The translations under genes and the position numbers were made by a program. Shown here piece after piece: positions 25,459 to 62,700 of a DNA stretch of 64,000 nucleotides; the first letter of the stretch is position 1; every line of letters begins with the position of its first letter. The stretch comes from Heptranchias perlo (Eukaryota), in assembly GCF_035084215.1 (NCBI RefSeq), contig NC_090331.1, positions 39,060,001-39,124,000 of the forward strand, given 5' to 3'. The notes under the pieces were generated by a model. The model did no database searches, had not been told where the DNA came from, and was given only the letters and a program-made list of their open reading frames with translations.

Positions 25459-26627
25459 TTATACTCCCTTACATCTGTCTTCTTTTTCTTTCTCCTCTCT
25501 GGCTTTCTCTGGTTTTGTTACACTGTCATAGGATGGTGGAGATGTGGTAGAAGGAGTCATATCAGTTTTGTCAGTGGTGGAGATTTCATTAAACTTATCT
25601 ATTACCATTTCTTCTTTGCCAGGTAAAAGCTCACTTGTTTTACCTTTTTCTTTGAACATGAAAGAGGCTTGTTTCAATGTTCGCCTAATCAGATAGCGCC
25701 TGAAAGCTCTTTGAATTATAGTTGCAGACACATGTTCCTGTTTACGTCGTAGAGTGGTTGTAATTGGCTCATATGATACCTTGGACGGATTGGATGCCAT
25801 AAAGCGTTCTTCCATCTGTTGTCGAAGAGCATCCATTTCTCCACCCTCACCCAGCACACGCTTTGTAAATGCGAATAAGATATCAAGACAATGAATTCTA
25901 TCTCCACTAACCATGGGCAAGTCCATAGCTATAAGTTGTACTTTGTTGGGTTTTGCCACACGAAGAGGTGGTTCCAAGGCATCTGCAAAATCATGCAATC
26001 TACCATACTCCATAAATTGAGTTGCATCTGAATCAAACTTTTCCCAAACTTCATAAAACATCTCAAAGTCATCCTCACTCAGTGGTTCAGCACTTTCCTC
26101 TGTAGCAACACTGAAATTCTCCAAAATAACAGCAATGTACATATTTATGACAATCAAGAAAGATATTATGATGTAACTGACAAAGAAGAAAATTGCAACC
26201 GGTGGGTTACCACAATCTCCTTTGATAAGACTGCCTGGGTTATCTTTTGTTGGGTCACAGTCTGGTGGCGCACTGTTTAGAATTGGAGCCAGTAAGCCAT
26301 CCCAGCCAGCAGATGTAGTGATCTGAAACAGACAGATCATGCTGTTTCCAAAAGTTTCAAAGTTGAACATATCATCAATACCAGATTCCTTCTTCACATA
26401 AGCAAAATTAGACATCGCAAATATGGCATAAATGAACATGACTAAGAAAAGCAACAGACCAATGTTGAACAAGGCAGGAAGAGACATCATCAATGCAAAC
26501 AGCAACGTACGAATTCCTTTAGCGCCCTTGATTAAACGTAGGATACGACCAATCCTGGCTAGTCGGATAACTCTAAATAATGTTGGTGACACAAAGTATT
26601 CTTCAATGATTTCATCTAAGAACATGC
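25459..26627 (-). CDS. scn2a: Voltage-gated sodium channel alpha subunit (SCN1A/2A/3A lineage, SCN2A-like), terminal coding exon: DIV S3-S6 and C-terminus
   Basis: Translation [44 protein letters not shown] (DIV S4), TTSAGWDG pore loop, [10 protein letters not shown] motif, PPSYDSV PY motif, TAA at 25459-25461. Acceptor ttttcttttag|GC at 26628/26627. The exact paralogue name is uncertain. Confidence 0.95.
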
Positions 26628-27482
26628 CTAAAAGAAAAAAAAGATATTCATGCATTAGCCACAGTTTTGCCTAACAGTAATTTTAGTGTGATAATACATC
26701 GAGTATCATAAATAACCTGCAATATGTTTCAAAACAGTAACACATTGAAGAATTGAGAAAATGTCACAAACTACAAGAGCAAAGCTCAGGCTATTTTCTA
26801 ATCACCTTAATACCAAGATATGTTACTGCCTTAGGCCAAATTCCAGTCAGTGTATGCTACTTTCTTTATAACATATATACAAACTTCAAGATTTTTTTTA
26901 CTGTTTTTCACTAAATGCTTTCTATTTTTCATATTTGATAGTTAAAGTATCATAGCAGACAGTAATAAATGTCAGGCCCTTATGAGAGAATTGTCAATTT
27001 TTGCAAGCATTGAAATTGTACCATATGATTTAACAAATAGTAATACTGGGATTTATTTAACTAAATGAAACGGGACAATATCAAAATATCACAGCCTTTA
27101 TCTTATTATAAATAATTGCTAATGAATCCCAACTTTACATTTAAGTAAATCTTCTGTGTTAACTTCTACAAATGTTTTCTACATTGCATTAATAGTTGAA
27201 CAATACTACAAAACTGTAAATTCATTCCTTTCGAAATTAATAACAGTGGCAATTATGTAATTTTTTGTTTTAGTCTTGCAGAATGCAATGCATTTTTGAA
27301 CTACCTGCAAGCATTTATTAAGTTTTGTTAAATAATACTCATGTTACATAACTTTTCACATAATAACTTCAATTGCTGGTATTTTGTCAAACATCAAAAC
27401 CAGTACATTCAATTCCAAAGACAGAAAAATTTGAAGGAATAATTATTTTTGAACATTGCTTTAAACCAAATAATTTTCTTAC

Positions 27483-27753
27483 CTATAATCGAAAGAATGA
27501 CCACCACAAAGTCGAAAATATTCCAGCCTATTGTAAAGTAATAATAGCGGAGTGCAATCATTTTAAGCACACACTCGCTTGTGAAAAGGACAATGAAAAC
27601 CAGGTTGATCCAAGATAAGATGTCGTTCATCTCGTCACTTTGATCATCAGTCTCCACCATCATGGTGACCATGTTAAGGCAGATGAGAATCATGATGGTG
27701 ATATCAAAGACTTGCTGGGTTACAAAATCAAACACCATCCCTTGGATCTTGTT
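27483..27753 (-). CDS. scn2a: Nav alpha subunit exon (271 bp): DIV S1-S3
   Basis: ttttatag|AAC AAG ATC CAA GGG ATG: [39 protein letters not shown]...VVILSII G|gtaaga. Its phase joins the next exon as G|GC. Confidence 0.95.
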
Positions 27754-28847: not shown

Positions 28848-31800
28848 CGAGAGAGAAAGAGAGAGAGCAGACAAAGCGTGGGGCTGCCCCCTCCCCAACC
28901 CCGGCCCGGTATAATGGAGCAGCGGAGAGAGAGAGAGAGCAGAGAGAGAGAAAGAGAGAGAGCAGACAAAGCGTGGGACTGCCCCCTTCCCACCCCCGGC
29001 CTGGTATAATGGAGCAGCGGAGAGAGAGACAAAAAATAATCAAAGGTGACGTAACAGGACAGCAGGTAGGGTGATTGGTTGGTGAGTATAACCTTTTTTT
29101 TTGCTAAGCTAGGGCACTGGTTTAAACTAAGAGCTGGGAAACTATAACTATTACTTTATTAAATTAGCAACTTAACTAGATGAACTAATTAGATAATAAA
29201 ACTAAAAACATTGAGTGAATAAAAACTCTAAATAAATAAATAAATAAAACAATGTTAGGTTGGGATGGCAGGGCAGGTGGTGTGTCGTAACTGCAGCATA
29301 TGGGAGTTTGTGGAAACCAGTGAGATCCCAGGCAACCACATCTGCAGTAAGTGTCTGCAACTCTAGGAACTTCGGCTCAGAGTTGTTGAGCTGGAGTCCG
29401 AGCTGCAGACATTGCGATGCATCAGGGAGGGGTGAGTTATCGGGACACTTTGACCCAGGAGGCAGTCACACCCCTTAGGATAGGTAGTAGTTTAGATTTG
29501 GTCAGTGATCAGGGGCAGGAGGATGTGACTGCAAGACAGGATGCAGTGATGGAGGAGCCTCAGCCTTTGACCTTGTCCAACAGGTTTGAGGTGGTAAGGG
29601 ATAGTATAGTCAGGGGGTCAGATACTGTTCTCTGCAGCCGCGACCGAGAGTCCCGAAGGCTTTCCCGGTGCCAGGGTTAAGGATATCTCCTCGCAGCTGG
29701 AAAAGAACTAGGAGCATGAGGTGGAGGATCCAGTTGTTGTGGTCCATGTAGGAACCAACGACATAGGCAGAACTAGGAATGAGGTTCTGCTGAGGGAGTG
29801 TAAGGAGCTAGGGTCCAAATTAATAAGAAGAACCTCAAAGGTAATGGTCTCTAGATTACTACCTCAGCCATGTGCAAATTGGCATAGGGTCAGACAGACC
29901 AGAGAGTTAAATGTGTAGCTCAAAGCGAGGTGTGGGAGACAGGGGTTTTGATTCATGGGGCACTGGCACCAGTACTGGGGAAAGAGGGAGCTGTTCCCTT
30001 GGGATGGGCTCTACTTAAACTGGGTTGGGACCAGTGTCCTGGCGAATAGAATAACTAGGGCTGTAGATAGGGCTTTAAACTAAAAAGGGGGGGGGAGGGG
30101 TCAGGTGAGGGGAAATTTAGAAATCTAAAGAGAAAATTCAAGGCAACAGAGCAGCGTAACAATTAGGGTAAAGATAAGCAGAGTGTGGCAGGAAGGGACA
30201 GAGAGTTTAACAGTAATAATGCATCAGCGAATAAGGTCAAAGCACGGAAAAATGCTAAAAGTTAAAATTAAAGGCGCTTTGTCTGAATGCACGAAGCATT
30301 CGTATCAAGATAGACAAATTAATGGCACAGAGATAAATAGGTTTGATCTAATAGTAATTACAGAGACGTGGTTGCAAGGTGACCACGGTTGGGAACTAAA
30401 TATTCCAGGGTAGTTGATGTTTCAAAAAGACAGACAAAATGGAAAGTCGGGGTGGGGGGGTGGGGGTTAACCTGATAATGAAGGATGACCTAAGGACAGT
30501 AGTGAGAAAGGATTTGGCTCGGAAGATCAGGAAGTAGAATCAGTATGGGTGGAGATAAAAAATAACAAGGGGCCGAAAACACTGGTGGGAGTGGTTTATA
30601 GGCCCCCTAACAGTAGTTATACTGTTGAAGAGAGTATTGATCAAGAAATAAGAGAAGCATGTAACAAAGGTAATGCAATAATCATGGGGGACTTTAATTT
30701 TCATATAGACTGGACAAATCAAATTGGCAAAGGTAGATTGGAGGATGAGTTCATGGAATGCATTCGAGATAGTTTCCCAGAACAATACGTTGTGGAACCA
30801 ACCAGGGAATAGGTTATTTTAGATCTTGTATTGTGTAATGATTCAGGGTTAATTAATAATTACATAGTAAAGGATTCTCTGAGGAAGAGTGATCATAATA
30901 TGATAGAATTTCACATTGTGTTCGAGAGTGATGTACTTAAGCCCGAAACTAGTCTTAAATTTAAATAAAGTCAGTTACATAGGTATGAGGGACGAGTTGG
31001 CTAAGGTAGATTGGGAAATTAGATTAAAAGGTATGACGATAGATAAGCAATGACAAACATTTAAAGAAATATTTCAAAATTCTCAACAAATATATATTCC
31101 ATTGAGGAATACAAACTCCACGGGAAAAGTGATCCATCCATGGCTAACTAAAAAAGTTAAGGATAGTACTGGATTAAAAGAAGAGGCTTTTAACGTTGCC
31201 AAGAAGAGTAGTAAGCCTGAGGATTAGGAAAGTTTTAGAACCCAGCAGAGGATGACCAAAAAATGGATTAAAAAGAGAGAAAATAGAATGAGAGTAAACT
31301 AGCAGGAAATATAAAAACAGATTGTGAGGGCTTCTACAAGTATGTAAAAAGGAAGAGAGTAGCGAAAGTAAACATAGATCCCCAAAAGGCTGAGACAGGA
31401 GAAATTATAATGGGGAATAAGGAAATGGCAGACACATGAAACAAATATTTTGTATTTGTCTTCACAGTAGAAGACACAAAAAACATACCAGTAATAGTGG
31501 GGAACCAAAAGGATAATGAGTGTGAGGAACTTAAAGTAAATAATATTAGTAAAGAAAAAGTACTAGAGAAATTAATGGAACTAAAAGCTGACAAATCCCC
31601 TGGACCTGAACGCCTACCCTATGGGTTCTAAAAAAAGTGGCTGCAGAGATAGTGGATGCATTGGCTGTGATCTTCCAAAATTCCCTAGATTCTAGAACGG
31701 TCCCAGTGGATTGGAAGATAGCAAAAGTAACGCTGATATTCAAGAAAGGAGGGAGAAAGAAAACAGGGAACTACAGGCCAGTTAGCCTGACATCGGTTGT

Positions 31801-36864: not shown

Positions 36865-36969
36865 CAAGGGCCTGGGTATAGGTTTCTGTGGTTTCTTGGA
36901 GCCAAGCTTTTTCATAGCATTGTAATATTTCTTTTGTTCTTCAGTCATGAAAATATCTTGACCTCCAAA
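36865..36969 (-). CDS. scn2a: Nav alpha subunit exon (105 bp): DIII-DIV linker with IFM fast-inactivation motif
   Basis: [35 protein letters not shown]. Acceptor ...cactttac|TTT (AC), donor TTG|gtaaga. Not in the ORF track. Confidence 0.95.
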
Positions 36970-38326: not shown

Positions 38327-41144
38327 TGATGTATATTTGTTTGGTGGTTGCCCCTTTAAAGCTCAGTCATTGTACAGATAGTTTGACAGCTAGCTTGGGC
38401 CAGGGTTTTATACCAGGCCTGTCACAATACAATCATGTGAGTTTGTTGTAGTCTCCCTTGTAATGTTCTTAAATAATCTAACACTACATTTTCAAATGTA
38501 TAAAGATTTAGTGATTGGTTCAGTTTGTATCTGAATGCAATTCCCTTTTGAGAGGTTAGATATTCAAAATCCAGGTACCTAATAACTCTTTTTTGTTCCG
38601 TTGGGACGGGCTCCACTTAAACCGCGTCCTGGCGAATCAAATAACTAGGGCTGTAGATAGGGCTTTACAATATAAAGGGGGAGGGGGAGAGGTCAGGTGA
38701 GGGGAAACTTAGAAATCTAATGAGAAAATTCAAGGCAACAGAACAGTGTAGTGATTTGGGTAAAGATAAGCAGAGTGTGGCAGGAAGGGACAGAGAGTGG
38801 CAGGAAGGGACAGAGAGTTTATCAATAATAGAGCATCGACAATTAAGGTCAAAGCAGGGAAAAATGGTTAAAAAGTCAAAATTAAACATTATTTATCTGA
38901 ATGCATGGAGCATTCGTAACAAGATAGATGAATTAGTCGCACAAATAGAGATAAATGGGTTTGATCTAATAGCTGTTACAGAGACATGGTTACAAAATGA
39001 CCAAGATTGGGAACTAAATATTCCAGGGTACATGACGTTTAGAAAAGGCAGAATGGAAAAGGAAAGGGTGTTGCCCTAATAATAAAGGATGATATAAGAA
39101 CAGCGGTGAAAAAGGATCTTCGCTCGGAAGATCAGGAAGCAGAATCAGTATGGGTGGAAATAAGAAATAACAAGAGGCAGAAAACATTGGTGGGAGTAGT
39201 TTATAGGCCCCCTAATAGTAGCTATACCATTGGACAGAGTATTAATCATGAAATAATAGGAGTTTGTAACAAAGGTAATGCAGTAATCATGGGGGACTTT
39301 AATCTTCATATGGACTGGTTAAATCAAATTGGCAAAAAGTAATTTGGAGGACGAGTTCATGGAATCCATTCAAGATGGCTTCCTCGAGCAATACCACATG
39401 GAACCAACCAGGGAACAGGCTAGTTTAGATCTTGTATTGTGCAATGAGATAGGGTTAATTAGTAATCTCACAGTAAAGGATCCTCTGCGGAAGAGTGATT
39501 ATAATATGATAGAATTTCACATTGAGTTTGAGAGTGACGTACTTAAATCTGAAACTAGAGTCTTAAAGTTAAATAAACCCAATTACATAGGTACATAGGT
39601 ATGATGGGCAAGTCAGCGAAGGTAGATTGGGAAATTAAATTAAAGAGTATGATGGATGAAAAGCAATGGCAAAAATTTAAAGAAATATTTCAATATTCTC
39701 AACAAATGTACATTCCATTGAGAACTAAAAACTTCATGGGAAAAGTGATCCACCCGTGGCTAACTAAAGAAGTTAAAGATAATTAGATTAAAACAAGAGG
39801 ACTATAATGTTGCCAAGAAGAGTAATAAGCCTGAGGATTGAAAGAGTTTTAGAAACCAACAAAGGACAACCAAAAAATTGATCAAAAGGGAGAAAATAGA
39901 ATATGAAAGTAAACTAGCAAGAAATATAAAAACAGATTGTAAGAGCTTCTACAAGTATATAAAAAGGAAGAGAGTAGCAAAAGTAAATGTTGGTCCCCTA
40001 GAGGCTGAGACAGGAGAAATTATAATGGGGAATTAGGAAATGGCAGATGCGTTAAACAAATATTTTGTATCTGTCTTCACAGTCGACGGCACAAAAAGCA
40101 TACCAGAAATAGTGGGGAACCAAGGGGCTAATGAGAGTGAGGAACTTGAAGTCATTAGTATCTGTAGAGGAAAAAGTCCTTCAGAAACTAATGGGACTAA
40201 AAGCCGATAAATCCCCTGAACCTGATGGTCTACATCCTAGGGTTCTAAAAGCGGTGGCTGCAGAGATAGTGGATGCATTGGTTATGATCTTCCAAAATTC
40301 CCTAGATTCCAGAACGGTCCAAGTGGAGTGGAAGGTGGCAAATGTAACCCTGCTATTCAAGAAAGGAGGGAGAGAGAAAACGGGGAAAGATAGGCCAGTT
40401 AGCCTAACATCAGTTGTCGGGAAAATGCTGGAATCCATTATTAAGAAAGTGTAACAGGGCATTTAGAACATCATATTAAGATTTGGCAGAGTCAAGATGG
40501 TTTTATGAAATGGAAATTGTGTTTGACAAATTTATTAGCGTTTTTTGAGGATGTAACTAACAGCGAAGATAAAGGGGAACCAGTGAATGCAGTGTATTTG
40601 GATTTTCAAAAGGCATTCGATAAGGTGCCACATAAAAGGTTGTCATGCAAGATAAGGGCTCATGGGGTTGGGAGTGGAATATTATCATGGATAGAGAATT
40701 GGTTAACGGAAAGAAAAGAGAGTAGGGATGAATGGGTCATTTTCAGGTTGGCAGGTTGTAACTAGTGGGATACCGCAAGGATCGGTGCTTGGGCCTCAGC
40801 TATTCACAATCCATATTAATTAATTTGATGAATGGACCGAGTGTAGTGTATCCAAGTTTGCTGACAATAAAAGCTAGGTGGGAAAGTAAGCTGTAAGGAG
40901 GACACAAAGGGCTCAATTTTGAAACGGTGGTGTGTTGGCAGCGGAGGGGTGAATATTCACGTGGCAAACCTGAATAAAAAAAACTTAGTGATTCCGACGC
41001 GATCGCAACGTAATTGATGGTGATTAAATTTCTTTTCGGGTTTCGCGTCCGGCAGCCAATAATGATTGACAGGCTGGCTGCCGACAGGAGCTGCAACACC
41101 AAGGGGAGAGAAAGAGAGAGAGAGAGACATCATCCGGCGCTGGA

Positions 41145-46728: not shown

Positions 46729-46866
46729 CTTTTTCTTCTGTTGATTGAAGTTGTCAATAATGACACCAATAAACAGATTTAAGGTGAAGAAAGATCCAAA
46801 GATGATGAAAATGACAAAGTAAAAATACATGTACAGGTTGACTTCATGGGAGGGTTGCTGCTCCAC
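46729..46866 (-). CDS. scn2a: Nav alpha subunit exon (138 bp): DIII pore-S6
   Basis: ctttag|GTG GAG CAG: [46 protein letters not shown]|ataagt (AT donor). Confidence 0.95.
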
Positions 46867-48780: not shown

Positions 48781-48857
48781 AAAGCCTCAGCCACCTTTGA
48801 ATTGAAGATTTCATTGTCCCCATTAAAACAACAACAACAACAACAACAACAACAATA

Positions 48858-49358
48858 GTGATAGGGGACTCAATTGTAAGGGGAATAGACAGGCGTTTCT
48901 GCGGCTGCAACCGAGACTCCAGGATGGTGTGTTGCCTCCCTGGTGCAAGGATCAAGGATGTCTCGGAGCGGCTACAGAACATTTTGGAGGGGGAGGGCGA
49001 ACAGCCAGCTGTCGTGGTGCACATAGGCACCAACGATATAGGTAAAAAAGGGGATGAGGTCCTAAAAGCAGAATATAGGGAGTTAGGAGGTAAATTAAAA
49101 AATAGGACCTCAAAGGTAGTAATCTCAGGATTGCTGCCAGTGCCACGTGCTAGTCAGAGTAGAAATAGGAGGATATTTCAAATGAATACGTGGCTAGAGG
49201 AATGGTGCAAGGGGGAGGGATTCAAATTCCTGGGACACTGGAAACGGTTCTGGGGGAGGTGGGACCAGTACAAACCGGATGGTCTGCACCTGGGCAGGGC
49301 CGGGACCGCTGTCCTAGGAGGAGTGTTTGCTAGTGCTGTTGGGGAGGGTTTAAACTAA
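48858..49358 (+). CDS. CR1 ORF1 C-terminal SGNH-esterase-like domain (5' truncated)
   Basis: IGDSIVRG, CLPGA, VHIGTND and DGLHL blocks. Ends GLN-TAA. Confidence 0.88.
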   Translation: MIGDSIVRGIDRRFCGCNRDSRMVCCLPGARIKDVSERLQNILEGEGEQPAVVVHIGTNDIGKKGDEVLKAEYRELGGKLKNRTSKVVISGLLPVPRASQSRNRRIFQMNTWLEEWCKGEGFKFLGHWKRFWGRWDQYKPDGLHLGRAGTAVLGGVFASAVGEGLN

Positions 49359-49441
49359 AGTGGCAGGGGGTTGGGAACCTGAGCAGGGAGAGAGAGGAAA
49401 GCGTAACAGGAAGGGACAGAAGGTATGGAGTAATAGGTAAA

Positions 49442-52297
49442 GTGTTAAAAAAGGAAAAAGCAGGAACTAAGCGTCACAAAACAGATTTGAAAGTTCTTTA
49501 TCTGAATGCACGTAGCATTCGTAATAAAATGGACGAGTTAACGGCACAAATAACTACGTATGGGTATGATCTTGTGGCCATTACAGAAACATGGCTGCAG
49601 GGTGACAACGACTGGGAATTAAATATGCCAGGGTATTTAACAATCAGGAAGGACAGGCAGGAAGGAAGGGGAGGTGGGGTGGCTATGTTAATAAAGGAAG
49701 GAATCACTGTAATACAGAGAAATGATATTGGGACAAAGCATCAAGATAATGAAACAGTTTGGGTGGAGATAAGGAATAATAAGGGAAAAAAAACATTAGT
49801 GGGCGTAGTATATAGGCCTCCTAATAGTTGCAACTCTGCTGGAAGAAGTATTAATCAGGAGATAGTCGGGGCATGTAATAAGGGAACAGCCATAATTATG
49901 GGGGATTTTAATTATCATATTAACTGGACAAATCAAATTGGGCAGAGCAGCCTTGAGGACGAGTTCATTGAGTGCATCAGGGATGGATTTCTTGAGCAGT
50001 ATGTAACTGATCCTACAAGGGGGCAGGCAACCTTGGACCTGGTCCTGTGTAATGAGTCAGGATTAATTAATAATGTCCTAGTTAAGGATCCCCTTGGAAC
50101 GAGCGACCACAACATGGTTGAATTCCATATCCAATTAGAGGGTGAGAAGGTTGATTCTCAAACAAGCATACTGAGCTTGAATAAAGGAGACTATGATGGT
50201 ATGAGAGCGGAATTGATTAAAGTGGACTGGGAAAATAGATTAAAGGGTAAGACGGTACATGAGCAGTGGTGTTCATTTAGGGAGTTATTTTACAACTTTC
50301 AAAATAAATATATTCCACTGAGGAAAAAAGGGTGTAAAAGAAATGACAGCCATCCGTGGCTAAGTAAAGAAATCAAGGATAGTATCCGACTAAAAACAAG
50401 GACATATAAGGTAGCCAAACTTAGTGGGAGGATAGAAGATTGGGAATTCTTCAAAAGACAGCAAAAAGTAACTAAAGGATTGATTAAGAAAGGGAAGTTA
50501 GATTATGAAAAGAAATTAGCAAAAAATATAAAAACAGATAGCAAGAGTTTCTACAGTTATATAAAAAGAAAAAGGGTGGCTAAGGCAAACATAGGTCCCT
50601 TAGAGGATGAGACCGGGAAATTAATGGTGGGAAACATGGAGATGGCAAAAATGCTGAACAAATATTTTGTTTCAGTCTTTACAGTAGAGGACACTAAGAA
50701 TATCCCAACACTGGACAAACAGGGGACTCTCGGGGGGGAGGAGCTAAATACGATTAAAATCACTCAGGAGATGGTACTCAGTAAAATAATGGGACTCAAG
50801 GCGGATAAATCCCCTGGACCTGATGGCTTCCATCCTAGGGTCTTGAGGGAAGTGGCAGTAGGGATTGTGGATGCTTTGGTGATAGTTTTCCAAAATTCCC
50901 TGGACTCAGGAGAGGTCCCGGCAGATTGGAAAACTGCTAATGTAACACCGTTATTTAAAAAGGGTAGTAGGCAGAAGGCTGGAAATTATAGGCCAGTTAG
51001 CTTAACATCTGTGGTGGGTAAAATTTTGGAGTCTATTATTAAGGAGACAGTAACGGAACATTTAGATAAGCATAATTTAATAGGACAAAGTCAGCATGGC
51101 TTTATGAAGGGGAAGTCATGTCTGACAAATTTGCTTGAGTTCTTCGAGGATATAACGTATAGGGTGGATAAAGGGGAACCAGTGGACATAGTGTATTTAG
51201 ACTTCCAGAAGGCATTCGACAAGGTGCCACATAAAAGATTATTACTTAAGATAAAAAATCACGGGATTGGGGGTAATATTCTGGCATGGGTGGAGGATTG
51301 GTTATCGAACAGGAAGCAGAGAGTTGGGATAAATGGTTCATTTTCGGACTGGCAACCAGTAACCAGTGGTGTTCCACAGGGGTCGGTGCTGGGTCCCCAA
51401 CTCTTTACAATCTATATTAACGATTTGGAGGAGGGGACCGAGTGCAACATATCAAAATTTGCAGATGATACAAAGATGGGAGGGAAAGTAGAGAGTGAGG
51501 AGGACATAAAAAACCTGCAAGGGGATATAGACAGGCTGGGTGAGTGGGCGGAGATTTGGCAGATGCAATATAATATTGGAAAATGTGAGGTTATGCACTT
51601 TGGCAGGAAAAATCAGAGAGCAAGTTATTTTCTTAATGGCGAGAGACTGGAAAGTACTGCAGTACAAAGGGATCTGGGGGTCCTAGTGCAAGAAAATCAA
51701 AAAGTTGGTATGCAGGTGCAGCAGGTGATCAAGAAAGCCAACGGAATGTTGGCTTTTATTGCTAGGGGGATAGAATATAAAAACAAGGAGGTATTGCTGC
51801 AGTTATATAAGGTATTGGTGAGACCGCACCTGGAATACTGCATACAGTTTTGGTCTCCATACTTAAGAAAAGACATACTTGCTCTCGAGGCAGTACAAAG
51901 AAGGTTCACTCGGTTAATCCCGGGGATGAGGGGGCGGACATATGAGGAGAGGTTGAGTAGATTGGGACTCTACTCATTGGAGTTCAGAAGAATGAGAGGC
52001 GATCTTATTGAAACATATAAGATTGTGAAGGGTCTTGATCGGGTGGATGCAGTAAGGATGTTCCCAAAGATGGGTGAAACTAGAACTAGGGGGCATAATC
52101 TTAGAATAAGGGGCTGCTCTTTCAAAACTGAGATGAGGAGAAACTTCTTCACTCAGAGGGTAGTAGATCTGTGGAATTTGCTGCCCCAGGAAGCTGTGGA
52201 AGCTACATCATTAGATAAATTTAAAACAGAAATAGACAGTTTCCTAGAAGTAAAGGGAATTAGGGGTTATGGGGAGCGGGCAGGAAATTGGACATGA
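49442..52297 (+). CDS. CR1 ORF2: APE endonuclease + reverse transcriptase (frame is open from 49334)
   Basis: YLNARS, ITETWL, VYRPP, MGDFN and SDH endonuclease motifs. RT motifs [27 protein letters not shown] and KFADD. Confidence 0.95.
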   Translation: MLKKEKAGTKRHKTDLKVLYLNARSIRNKMDELTAQITTYGYDLVAITETWLQGDNDWELNMPGYLTIRKDRQEGRGGGVAMLIKEGITVIQRNDIGTKHQDNETVWVEIRNNKGKKTLVGVVYRPPNSCNSAGRSINQEIVGACNKGTAIIMGDFNYHINWTNQIGQSSLEDEFIECIRDGFLEQYVTDPTRGQATLDLVLCNESGLINNVLVKDPLGTSDHNMVEFHIQLEGEKVDSQTSILSLNKGDYDGMRAELIKVDWENRLKGKTVHEQWCSFRELFYNFQNKYIPLRKKGCKRNDSHPWLSKEIKDSIRLKTRTYKVAKLSGRIEDWEFFKRQQKVTKGLIKKGKLDYEKKLAKNIKTDSKSFYSYIKRKRVAKANIGPLEDETGKLMVGNMEMAKMLNKYFVSVFTVEDTKNIPTLDKQGTLGGEELNTIKITQEMVLSKIMGLKADKSPGPDGFHPRVLREVAVGIVDALVIVFQNSLDSGEVPADWKTANVTPLFKKGSRQKAGNYRPVSLTSVVGKILESIIKETVTEHLDKHNLIGQSQHGFMKGKSCLTNLLEFFEDITYRVDKGEPVDIVYLDFQKAFDKVPHKRLLLKIKNHGIGGNILAWVEDWLSNRKQRVGINGSFSDWQPVTSGVPQGSVLGPQLFTIYINDLEEGTECNISKFADDTKMGGKVESEEDIKNLQGDIDRLGEWAEIWQMQYNIGKCEVMHFGRKNQRASYFLNGERLESTAVQRDLGVLVQENQKVGMQVQQVIKKANGMLAFIARGIEYKNKEVLLQLYKVLVRPHLEYCIQFWSPYLRKDILALEAVQRRFTRLIPGMRGRTYEERLSRLGLYSLEFRRMRGDLIETYKIVKGLDRVDAVRMFPKMGETRTRGHNLRIRGCSFKTEMRRNFFTQRVVDLWNLLPQEAVEATSLDKFKTEIDSFLEVKGIRGYGERAGNWT

Positions 52298-52489
52298 AGC
52301 TGAGTTCGGATCGGTCAATGCCCTGTGGGTGGCGGAGAGGGCCCAGGGGCTATGTGGCCGGGTCCTGCTCCGACTTCTTGTGTTCTTTAGATTTGTGGTT
52401 GGGATCAGATCAGCCATGATCTTATTGAATGGCGGAGCAGGCTCGAGGGGCCGATTGGCCTACTCCTGCTCCAATTTCTTATGTTCTTA

Positions 52490-55280: not shown

Positions 55281-55793
55281 AGTTTTCTCAGCACAGTGTG
55301 AACCAATGCAGGCACGAAGATGAAAATGGCAAAATGCAATCAGCCTCACCTGTACTGGTGCTGTCAACACACTGTCACATGGCTTGGAAACACAAATTAG
55401 AAAGACTCACATGTAGCACCAGAGCTTGGAGATTGGAGTTGGAGGAATCAAGGAAAAGTAATCAAATGAATCTGTAAATTCTCATGTGACAGAAAAGCAT
55501 GAGGTAAAATAGCATGATGGAAATAGAGTGGCCGGAAGTGTGTAATAGAAATAGGCATGACAGCTACAGGAAATAAGAGTTACACTTACAGGAATAATGT
55601 GCATATGCAAGAATATATATTTTTTTCCACTCAGCATGCTTAAACAGTAACTCTGAATGAAAGCCTTTCCAGGTTAATTTTTACTCTGATGAGTTTCTTT
55701 CAATATATTCATATTCTCTATTCTCTTCACCCATGATGTGGAGATGCCGGTGATGGACTGGGGTTGACAATTGTAAACAATTTTACAACACCA

Positions 55794-57008
55794 AAGAACT
55801 TTACCCAAACACACGGAACAGCCATAGGGACCAAATTCGCACCCCAATACGCCAACATTTTCATGCACAAGTTCGAGCAGGACTTCTTCACTGCACAGGA
55901 CCTCCAACCAACACTATACACCAGATACATCGACGACATTTTCTTTCTATGGACCCACGGTGAGGAATCACTGAAGAGACTACACGATAACATCAACAAG
56001 TTCCATCCCACCATCAAGCTCACCATGGACTACTCCTCAGGATCGGTTTCTTTCTTGGACACACGAATCTCCATCAAAGACGGGCACCTCAGCACCTCAC
56101 TCTACCGCAAGCCCACGGACAATCTCACAATGCTCCACTTTTCCAGCTTCCACCCTAACCACGTCAAAGAGGCCATCCCCTATGGACAGGCCCTGCGAAT
56201 ACACAGGGTCTGCTCAGACGAGGAGGAACGCGATGGACACCTACAGACGCTGAAAGACGCCCTAGTAAGAACGGGATATGATGCTCGACTCATCGATCGA
56301 CAGTTCCGACGGGCCACAGCGAAAAATCGCGTAGACCTCCTCAGAAGACTAACACGGGACGCAACCAACAGAGTACCCTTCGTCGTCCAGTACTTCCCCG
56401 GAGCGGAGAAACTACGCCATGTTCTCCGCAGCCTTCAACATGTCATCAATGATGACGAACACCTCGCTATGGCCATCCCCACACCTCCACTACTCGCCTT
56501 TAAACAGCCACCCAACCTCAAACAAACCATCGTTCGCAGCAAATTACCCAGCCTTCAGGAGAACAGCGTCCACGACACCACACAACCCTGCCACGGTAAC
56601 CTCTGCAAGACATGCCAGATCATCGACACAGATACCACCATCACACGAGAGGACACCACCCACCAGGTGCACGGTTCATACTCCTGTGACTCGGCCAACG
56701 TTGTCTACCTCATACGTTGCAGGAAAGGATGCCCCAGAGCATGGTACATTGGCGAGACCATGCAGACGCTGCGACAACGGATGAACGGACACCGCGCAAC
56801 AATCGCCAAACAGGAGGGTTCTCTCCCTGTCGGGGAACACTTCAGCAGTCATGGACATTCAGCCACCGACCTTCCGGTAAGCATACTCCAAGGCGGCCTT
56901 CGAGACACACGACAACGCAAAATCGTCGAGCAGAAACTGATAGCCAAGTTCCGCACCCATGAGGACGGCCTCAACCTGGATCTTGGGTTCATGTCACACT
57001 ACACGTAA
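55794..57008 (+). CDS. Penelope-like RT (partial) + Cys-rich linker + GIY-YIG endonuclease
   Basis: QTHGTAIGT, RYIDDIF, FLD, YRKPT, PCHGNLCKTC, VVYLIRC...WYIGET...RMNGH and GLN. No internal stop. Confidence 0.92.
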   Translation, partial: KNFTQTHGTAIGTKFAPQYANIFMHKFEQDFFTAQDLQPTLYTRYIDDIFFLWTHGEESLKRLHDNINKFHPTIKLTMDYSSGSVSFLDTRISIKDGHLSTSLYRKPTDNLTMLHFSSFHPNHVKEAIPYGQALRIHRVCSDEEERDGHLQTLKDALVRTGYDARLIDRQFRRATAKNRVDLLRRLTRDATNRVPFVVQYFPGAEKLRHVLRSLQHVINDDEHLAMAIPTPPLLAFKQPPNLKQTIVRSKLPSLQENSVHDTTQPCHGNLCKTCQIIDTDTTITREDTTHQVHGSYSCDSANVVYLIRCRKGCPRAWYIGETMQTLRQRMNGHRATIAKQEGSLPVGEHFSSHGHSATDLPVSILQGGLRDTRQRKIVEQKLIAKFRTHEDGLNLDLGFMSHYT

Positions 57009-60300: not shown

Positions 60301-62700
60301 ATTCCTTATGAGTTTCTTTTCATACTCCCTTTTTGTAGCTCTAACTATCTGTTTTGTCACCCTTTGCTGTTCTTTGTATCTCTCCCAGTCACCAGCATCA
60401 AGTAGACTCTTGCCCTTTAGGGGTATAAATTGGTTCTGCATCACGTTAAATTCTTTTTTGAAGACCTCCCACTGATCTTGTGTTGTTTTACCCATTAACA
60501 GATTTGCCTAGTTTACTGTGGACAGTCTCTATCTCATCCCATTGAAGTCGGCCATACCTAAATTTAGAATCTTAGTAGCTGTTATGGACTTCTCCTTTTC
60601 AAACACAACGTTGAACTCAATCATATTATGATCGCTATTACATAAATGTTCACGCACCGTTCGGCTGTTAACTAAATCTGGCTCATTACTCATTACTAAA
60701 TCTAATATGGCCTGCCCCCTTGTTGGTTCAAGGAAGTATTGTTGCAGAAAGCTGTCCTGAACACACACAAGAAATTCACTACCTTTCTGACATGAGCTCG
60801 TCTGCTTATCTCAATCTATATGAAAGTTAAAATCCCCCATTAAGACCATTCTGCCTTTGCTATATGCTTGTCTAATCTCTGCATTTATACATTCTGCCAC
60901 TTCACAGCTGCTACCAGGGGCCCTATATACAACTCCCACTACAGTCTTCCATCCTTTTCTATTTCTTATTTCTACCCAAAGTCTCCACTGTCTGCTTATC
61001 TCTCATTATATCCTCTCTTATTTTTGAAGTAATTTCATCTTTTATCAGTATGGATACTTCTCCCCCTCTACCAGTATCCCTATCCTTCCTGTAGACCTTG
61101 TAACCTGGTATATTCAGTTCCCAGTCCTGACCGTCTTGCAGCCATGTCTCAGTAATGGCTACCTTGTCGTAACCTCTAAGTCGAATTTGCGCCTGCGATT
61201 CATTCAATTTGTTCCTTATACTCCATGCGTTTGTATAAAGAACGCTTATTTGGGCCACACACTCTAACCTGTCCTTCTGCTCTAATGTTATTTTTTCTCA
61301 CACACTTCTTAAATCACTGCTGATTTAATTACTTTACATCTTTTAGTGTTTCCTTTACCTGTAATGTCGAAAGGATAATTTCTGACTGTTACTGTACTCT
61401 CTTCCTTTTCATTTGTTTTAGAATTATTATTTATAGTACCTTTTCCACCTGAGCCCTCCCCCCTCCACCATTTTAAAGTCCTTGTAGCTGCTCTATTTAT
61501 CCTTTCCGCTAGGACCCTGGTCCCAGCCCGGTTCAGGTGGAGCCCTTCTCAATGGTACAGTTCCCTCCTGTCCCAGTACTGGTACCAATGTCCCATGAAA
61601 TGGAACCTCTCTTTCCCACACCACTCCTTCAGCCACATGTTCACCTCCCGAATCTGCTTATCCCCATGCCAATTTGCACGTGGCATGGGTAATAATCCAG
61701 AGATTATAACCCTTGAGGTCCTGTTTTTTAATTTAGCTCCATCTCTGAACAGGACCTCTTGCCTACTCTTTCCTAATTTTGTTGCTCCCAACATGGACCA
61801 CGATGACTGGATCCTCCCCCTCCCTCTCCAATATCCATTCAAGCCGGTTCGAGATGTCCCTCACCCTGGCACCAGGTAGGCAACATACCACGAGGGACTC
61901 TCAATCCTGCTTACAAAGGATGCTATCTGACCCCTAATTATTGAATCCCCTACAATTACCACATAGCGCTTCTCCTCCTCCTCTTCCTCCTCCTCCTCCT
62001 CCCTTTGGCCAGCGTCCTGCTCCAAGGTGCCATGGTCAGCATTCTGGCAGTCTTCTGACAGTCTTTATCCTGATCCTCACAGGTAGCAAGTACATTGTTC
62101 CTGTTGAAACGGATCAATTTCTGCGGATCCTTGTTCTCTATCTCACCTGGATTCCCCTTACTCTCTACACTATCGGTCACACCAACCCCGTTCTGATCCT
62201 GTACCTCTCTACGAGGTGTGACCAAGGTCTGGAGCAAACTGTCCAGATACTCCTCCCCCTCCCTTATGTGTTGGGGTGTTTCCAACTCACCCTCCAGCTG
62301 AATGACTCTGAGCTGGAGAGATTCGAGACGGAGACATCTACTGTAGATGTGTTCGCTTGGGATAGCCTTGTTGTGCACAAACTCCCACATACTGCAGTCC
62401 AGACACACAACCTGCTCTGCCATATCTTAATCTATGTTTATTTATCGACAATTACTTTTTAGTCTGTTTTTTTTGCTTTTTTTAGAAAATAAATTTAGCA
62501 CCTCTTTCCCCTATTTTGGCAATCACTTACAGCTGATTGACTGTTAACTGTTAACTGCCAGAGACTTGCAGTTTCTGTTGACTGTTTAAAACTTTAAAAG
62601 AAACTGCAAGTTAGTTAAGTTCTAAGTTAAATTTTAAACTGAATTTTAATTTCAATTCACCCACTACTTTACCACAGAGTCCCACTCTCACCAAATTCTC
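57333..62700 (-). mobile_element. Near full-length degraded CR1, interrupted at 57480-58614
   Basis: ORF1 MAEQVVCLDCSMWEF (62423) and endonuclease/RT pieces. Its 3' end (57333-57479) is collinear with 58615 onward (aaatctatca|atctcag). Confidence 0.88.
57480..58614 (+). mobile_element. CR1 3' fragment nested in the minus-strand CR1
   Basis: [12 protein letters not shown]...[12 protein letters not shown] and ttcttacgttct tail. Confidence 0.88.

Follow-up and report, generated by a model that had tools for sequence, protein, structure and literature searches.

The route by which the second open reading frame (ORF2) is expressed has been established for only a few bicistronic long interspersed nuclear elements (LINEs), with reinitiation at work in L1 and SART1. 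Specifically, the passages on this subject in PMC2881922 and PMC5972666 present UAAUG coupling in SART1 and unconventional initiation in LINE-1 as established routes, both of which yield a separate ORF2 protein without a slippery heptamer. CR1-group elements are described as the dominant retrotransposons of most vertebrates (PMC13343379), and the present analysis concerns a CR1 copy in a 64,000-nt stretch of Heptranchias perlo DNA (NC_090331.1, positions 39,060,001 to 39,124,000 of the forward strand; the window), the family of which very probably joins ORF2 to ORF1 through a programmed -1 ribosomal frameshift.

The closest described systems are TRE5-A and TRE3-A of Dictyostelium, in which translation of ORF2 requires a -1 frameshift according to a legend in a review (PMC5911963). 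Like CR1, for which we infer the -1 shift from sequence, they are non-long-terminal-repeat retrotransposons of the apurinic/apyrimidinic endonuclease (APE) type; unlike CR1, they belong to another clade and have another ORF1, and the passage in question names neither a slippery site nor a stimulator and reports no measurement. A second parallel is found in coronavirus 1a/1b, where infectious bronchitis virus uses U_UUA_AAC, the same heptamer as CR1 (PMC5009743). As described there, the -1 shifts of coronaviruses and of retroviral gag-pol provide structural protein in excess and polymerase as a fusion, and a counterpart is proposed here for CR1. In contrast to these viruses, CR1 is a LINE of the host genome, its ORF1 stop codon abuts the heptamer, and no pseudoknot or stem-loop was found 5-9 nt downstream.

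[quoted passage not shown] CR1 likewise possesses a short unstructured box, GGGGG starting at +11, which differs from that of PRRSV in being G-rich rather than C-rich; moreover, in CR1 only the -1 frame is open to an enzyme. Synthetic G-quadruplexes (G4s) have been placed 6-10 nt downstream of a slip site with an optimum spacer of 6-8 nt (Yu et al., PMC3919603), a spacing that fits the GG at +7 in some CR1 families; these synthetic G4s are three-tier (G3U)4, whereas CR1 has only one universal G5 run. For Paramecium elements, +1 shifting or reinitiation has been suggested (PMC5405496). No description of CR1 frameshifting was found in the literature searched, outside of which lie the primary CR1 papers of 1997 and 2003 that may mention the overlap. 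The main-text portions covered of PMC13343379, PMC4316615, PMC4120745, PMC3708506, PMC3905857, PMC2734521 and PMC2881922 hold no relevant frameshift passage, and CR1 is unmentioned in the first 300,000 characters of PMC5009743.

The end of CR1 ORF1 and its conservation

The junction in the window copy reads GGT TTA AAC TAA (49347-49358, plus strand). As originally predicted, the heptamer T_TTA_AAC (49349-49355) is phased as X_XXY_YYZ in the zero frame of ORF1; its 3' side is abutted by the ORF1 stop at 49356-49358, which is TAA or TAG and never TGA in 11 representatives. A GGGGG box, the candidate stimulator, follows at +11 to +15 (49366-49370). ORF2, again as predicted, occupies the -1 frame; it is open from 49334 and runs intact for 987 codons to 52297, encoding an endonuclease (PF03372) with matches to the L1 and TRAS1 endonucleases and a reverse transcriptase (PF00078). 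Between the heptamer and the endonuclease lies a 150-nt linker (49349-49498) that contains neither a stop codon nor an ATG in the -1 frame. The first strand of the APE endonuclease is formed by YLNARS (49499-49516; match to 1VYB, E 2.9e-7), the Asn of which aligns with LINE-1 endonuclease residue 14. This Asn is required for endonuclease activity. The first in-frame ATG of ORF2 (49529-49531; Val in family E) lies inside the endonuclease, ten codons past the start of the YLNARS motif, and was thus correctly placed after it; GTG 49442 is also in frame.

A bare TTTAAAC is not rare, with 23 occurrences in the window versus 16.6 expected, a count reached by 9 of 100 shuffles. Only two places in the window, 30074 and 49349, carry the full motif TTTAAAC-TAR-N7-GGGGG, the former belonging to an older family (B) that, as anticipated, carries the same signal on the plus strand (30074-30095): heptamer and TAA at 30074-30083, then G9 at 30087-30095. 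Genome-wide, there are 19,453 matches to the full motif versus 14 to a reversed control, a figure that reflects family amplification and not independent cases. Decayed copies had also been cited in support. Both a family-B-like junction (38661-38705, plus strand, cited at 38664), in which the heptamer is destroyed, and a family C junction (61450-61477, minus strand, with the site at 61471-61477), which reads TTTAAAA and has lost its stop, do keep their G tracts; these tracts are no evidence of selection. Sister copies of family C carry TTTAAAC-TAG. Among heptamer-bearing copies of three young families, the G box is retained in 31/31, 53/55 and 25/27.

Loci for comparison came from ORF1 protein queries and from DNA queries; the DNA queries included the junction, and the loci they gave are biased towards it. 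The resulting 212 junction records fell into 14 clusters, and TTTAAAC stands near the predicted ORF1 end in 190 of them. Eleven lineages were compared, namely nine families of the genome (A-I) and two loci from other organisms, L111 and L124, that were retrieved by a pattern without the heptamer; four singletons (L153, L172, L178 and L075), two of them without the heptamer, were excluded as decayed copies. Pattern scans of metagenomes and of prokaryotes gave 20 loci each, two and none of which, respectively, were CR1, so that DNA from beyond this genome comes from L111 and L124 only. Searches of viral contigs, plasmids and phages found no CR1, and random sampling of 200 kb of the genome gave one further junction.

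In all eleven lineages, T_TTA_AAC_TAR-N7-GGGGG is invariant: TTTAAAC, the TA of the stop and GGGGG at +11 to +15 are fixed, and every other position from -14 to +25 varies. The proposed check for conservation of TTTAAAC at synonymous positions thereby came out in its favour, the heptamer being invariant in 11/11 while nearby synonymous sites vary. Specifically, over the final 60 codons of ORF1 in ten lineages, the terminal Leu codon is TTA in 10/10 and the Asn codon AAC in 9/9, at codon usages of 0.26 and 0.34, respectively. As a control, the codon varies in 11 of 12 other near-invariant amino-acid columns at the ORF1 end, Leu and Gly codons included, and four-fold sites differ by 0.18-1.0 between lineages (5-22 sites per pair). 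Given x-L-N and the codon usage of family A, the chance of the heptamer is ~0.02 per lineage, and of the order of 1e-5 to 1e-7 over about four deep groups. The conserved F-K is not ORF2 coding, because in 9/11 lineages a stop shuts the -1 frame shortly upstream of the heptamer, five codons away (49331-49333 in the window) in eight of the eleven and six codons away in a ninth. Two bases of the G box, +11 and +14, fall on third positions that are synonymous in the -1 frame, and +15 stays G even though the encoded residue differs (D, V, E or G). When old families are scored copy by copy, no excess of conservation is seen at the heptamer, as neutral decay predicts.

At the protein level, 85 of 120 ORF1 homologues end in Leu-Asn (LN), with sharks, rays, coelacanth, a teleost, frogs, turtles, squamates and the hoatzin as named sources. 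In six records (P0040, P0079, P0132, P0167, P0168 and P0190) the protein continues into the -1 frame, where it starts with FKL; GGGGG at +11 fits five of these, and in three a Met stands a short way ahead of the endonuclease. Of 150 representatives (50% identity), 106 possess a DGLHL motif and a tail behind it; 45 of the 106 end in LN, preceded in 44 by a residue whose codon can end in T, and 11 end in GN, nine of these being QGN and all nine compatible with G_GGA_AAC. Gln precedes LN in none of the 45, versus the nine QGN among 11 GN ends (p 7e-9, uncorrected for kinship). With a profile built from LN proteins and a window of +20 to +29 that was picked after looking, a slippery-compatible tripeptide is present in 39 of 61 non-LN ends versus 118 of 1312 background windows. 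U_UUA_AAC, G_GGA_AAC, A_AAA_AAC and G_GGU_UUU have been named as the most shifty heptamers (PMC5009743), and the Q-G-N, K-N and G-F/F-F ends of distant lineages appear to represent switches to the other known slippery heptamers; on a tree of 102 esterase cores from which the terminal motif was excluded, the GN, KN and GF/FF ends are interleaved.

Frame continuity and the routes to ORF2

The junction combines a zero-frame X_XXY_YYZ heptamer, an overlapping -1 ORF that is open to a functional domain, and conservation at synonymous positions, and it is a real, conserved and probably functional -1 frameshift signal. The comparative evidence lends strong support to the predicted ORF1-ORF2 fusion, and in all likelihood esterase-type CR1 elements make ORF2 mainly in this form, via programmed -1 ribosomal frameshifting. 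Most ribosomes would finish the 316-aa ORF1 protein and terminate at UAR, and a minority would slip one base back on U_UUA_AAC, with tRNA-Leu moving from UUA to UUU and tRNA-Asn from AAC to AAA. The slipped ribosomes would read through the variable linker into the endonuclease and reverse transcriptase, giving a fusion of ~1,296 aa (316 + 980) with the junction ...VGEGLN-LKWQG... and the predicted junction peptide AGTAVLGGVFASAVGEGLNLK. The rarity of the slip would set a Gag:Gag-Pol-like surplus of ORF1 protein, and the pause would probably be due jointly to the abutting stop codon and to the GGGGG box, which lies at the mRNA entry channel, 10 nt downstream. If so, CR1 would follow a retrovirus-like expression logic, with an ORF2 protein that bears a membrane-binding esterase at its N-terminus, and ORF2 annotations starting at an internal Met would need correcting. 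The junction would then also represent a natural frameshift signal that is compact and has a stimulator of a non-structural kind, and sensitivity to frameshift inhibitors such as Shiftless would be predicted.

Heptamer-to-endonuclease linkers of 150, 135, 165/159, 177, 276, 174, 126 and 99 nt were found, all multiples of 3; past the G box they are unalignable between families, yet the frame is kept. The 150-nt length is present in 31/31 copies, 135 nt in 48 (three at 134) and 165/159 nt in 22 (one at 164), and the modal length of old families B and D is 207 nt. [quoted passage not shown] An in-frame ATG ahead of the endonuclease is lacking in six of the 11 representatives. Families A and E, two of the three young families (F being the third), belong to these six and have no ATG ahead of the endonuclease Asn, and the first Met of family E is 100 codons inside the domain.

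Several observations weigh against a frameshift. The eleven lineages are related and form only about four deep groups, and 730 genome matches have another first base, many of them G_TTA_AAC in family H. In twelve such copies (L278-L289) the site adjoins an expanded G run in decayed sequence, and they are probably later mutations, an active sub-lineage being less likely. G_UUA has been named as the variant in equine arteritis virus (PMC5009743). Old families B, C and D are mostly out of frame through G-run indels, the family B representative was chosen for its intact frame, and the family C linker has a modal length of 242 nt in four copies (243 in the representative). The original prediction held that ORF2 has no usable ATG, which is borne out in families A and E and fails in the five of 11 representatives that have an in-frame linker ATG, at the unrelated codons 3, 18, 46, 52 and 74. 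Family F has TAATG, an AUG in the ORF2 frame overlapping the stop (L240:2028-2050), and P0132, like two stork gene models, has an in-frame Met ahead of the endonuclease. In the 80 nt downstream, neither a hairpin nor a pseudoknot was found to be conserved (z +0.07 to -2.05 versus shuffles), and there was no Rfam match. Finally, among the proteins, the frameshifted record P0190 misfits at the fifth G, 22 of 61 non-LN ends have no compatible tripeptide, the GN, KN and GF ends are known from protein alone and without taxon names, and depletion of E/Q/K/M/W before LN (1/27, p 0.09) is not significant after redundancy removal.

Some of these points bear on termination-reinitiation of the SART1 or LINE-1 kind, in which ribosomes would terminate at UAR and then resume translation in the -1 frame a little farther on, with or without an AUG. 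The UAAUG of family F is exactly that of SART1 (PMC3708506 and PMC5972666, in the passages on coupling), LINE-1 ORF2 initiation has been described as AUG-independent (PMC5009743), the SART1 downstream element likewise lies 3' of the stop, and a stop-anchored restart would preserve frame too. This route is nonetheless improbable as the main one. An AUG at the stop occurs in 1/11 lineages and not in family A of the window, the codon after the stop being AAG, ACT, GTA, GAG, ATT, AAT, GAT or GAA elsewhere. UGGGA upstream of the stop, resembling a termination upstream ribosome-binding site, is not shared and is absent from young families A, E and F, and reinitiation leaves unexplained both the X_XXY_YYZ at synonymous positions and the apparent switches to G_GGA_AAC and A_AAA_AAC. 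In young family F, TAATG coexists with an intact heptamer and G box, and frameshifting and reinitiation could both be operating there.

It is very unlikely that the motif merely reflects a need of the ORF1 protein for a C-terminal Leu-Asn, with ORF2 starting independently at GTG 49442, CTG 49379 or a linker ATG. LN is indeed nearly invariant as protein, most linkers contain near-cognate start codons, and in bird and P0132 lineages a Met stands 11-15 residues ahead of the endonuclease strand; the fixation of TTA and AAC described above speaks against protein constraint, as do a solved ZfL2-1 esterase chain that ends without LN, start codons at positions that differ among lineages (with none in L111), and a linker that is in frame and stop-free right back to the heptamer. 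A fusion at the RNA level, by splicing or by polymerase slippage that adds a base in TTT/AAA or in the nearby G run, has an equally slim chance. Two donor-like GGTGAGTA sites are present in the family A 5' untranslated region (UTR), and in some family E copies the length of the upstream G run places ORF1 and ORF2 in one frame; splicing, however, would need no phased heptamer, the T3/A3 runs are short for polymerase slippage, and the fused copies are scattered single insertions, the -1 arrangement being present in 48 of the 51 family E copies with a located endonuclease. When contigs of four sequencing runs were compared with L006:480-2400, 15 of 18 joints could be inspected and lacked GT..AG, and the 40 of 411 differences listed include no heptamer change, a share too small to count for or against this route. 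A search for longer homologues returned gene-model chimeras only and no natural single-ORF family.

With regard to the fused copies themselves, in L272-L274 and L277 of family E the G run that borders the heptamer on its 5' side is altered, and some of them form one frame of 1,195-1,290 codons. The in-frame fused genomic copies examined are of this type, with the junction in four of six stretches, and these single-frame copies represent mutation or assembly error.

The GGGGG box as candidate stimulator

A G4 had been put forward as the stimulator, and this part of the original prediction has fared poorly. A three-tier G4 pattern is present in 1/11 representatives, not the window copy, and a two-tier pattern in 8/11, with no G4 pattern in L111, L124 or family H; four conserved G3 tracts with short loops 6-8 nt downstream are not found, and what is conserved is the single GGGGG. 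The G tracts are also the most indel-prone part of old copies. The best synthetic three-tier G4 gave 7% frameshifting, and fewer tiers gave less (PMC3919603). Natural G4-stimulated frameshifting was called not known in 2016 (PMC5009743). A G4 stimulator is doubtful on this sequence evidence. A 2026 paper reportedly deals with G4s and codon-repeat frameshifting in human genes.

No shared fold was found 5-9 nt downstream, although a pseudoknot or long-range pairs may exist, and when the family A element was scanned for sequences able to form a duplex with the G box, only imperfect partners came up. What the lineages do share is an unstructured box 10-11 nt downstream at fixed spacing, as in PRRSV, with GGGGG in 11/11. 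A bound protein or a direct effect on the ribosome, with assistance from the abutting stop, is ranked above a G4 because only the G5 is conserved, no structure was found and the spacing is PRRSV-like. By analogy with the arterivirus C-rich box, the G box might act via a bound protein, which is put forward tentatively as the first choice; its reader is possibly a host G-run-binding protein, or ORF1 protein itself as feedback. A direct ribosome effect, or a minor role in helping the stop-codon pause, is a possibility to be set behind it. A two-tier or intermolecular G4 seems unlikely, and action by long-range pairing more unlikely still.

It is tempting to suggest, albeit speculatively, a wider picture in which -1 frameshifting would be hundreds of millions of years old in the esterase-ORF1 CR1s of vertebrates and of several, probably invertebrate, lineages, the heptamer changing among U_UUA_AAC, G_GGA_AAC, A_AAA_AAC and G_GGU_UUU, with a vertebrate signal composed of a structure-free, protein-bound GGGGG and the adjacent stop codon, and with a Gag-Pol-like fusion of esterase, endonuclease and reverse transcriptase as the product. 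Such a signal would be a host-genome counterpart of the transactivated frameshift of arteriviruses.

The window copy, its family and its surroundings

The window copy (48855-52489, plus strand) belongs to family A and is inserted in an (ACA)n run, its start at ~48855 following that run. The family is young, 401 nt being 100% identical in 40/40 scored genome matches. The copy had been called intact; it is 5'-truncated and retains in 48855-49358 the last 167 of 316 ORF1 codons, with the SGNH esterase domain (PF13472) and the TAA stop, and it is therefore unable to express ORF1 itself. A full 316-aa ORF1 is present in 12 of 30 fetched sister loci, and in the complete example (L006:709-1656) it comprises a Cys finger, a coiled coil and the SGNH esterase, the 5' half of which arrangement is missing from the window copy. 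The ORF1 profile matches the ZfL2-1 esterase structure 4C1B (E 1.8e-46). Homologues occur in turtles, birds and frogs, and the closest named proteins come from sharks and rays; the assignment to canonical CR1 rather than L2 is provisional, following from ORF1 homology and from a short terminal repeat at the 3' end. In family A the 5' UTR (L006:130-708), which holds the donor-like sites, contains tandem repeats of ~40-50 nt and a TGACGTCA motif.

The copy lies antisense to and upstream of several exons of a voltage-gated sodium channel gene on the minus strand (25459-26670, ~27500-27700, 36880-36950 and 46740-46760), and it is probably intronic. A frame resembling reverse transcriptase at 55737-57008 (plus strand), with a weak match to Pfam RVT_1, is probably a Penelope-like element, and by eye we take its C-terminal stretch to be GIY-YIG-like. 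Finally, a CR1 ORF1 protein 63% identical to the query (P0006) is filed at NCBI as Pseudomonas aeruginosa and probably reflects host contamination.
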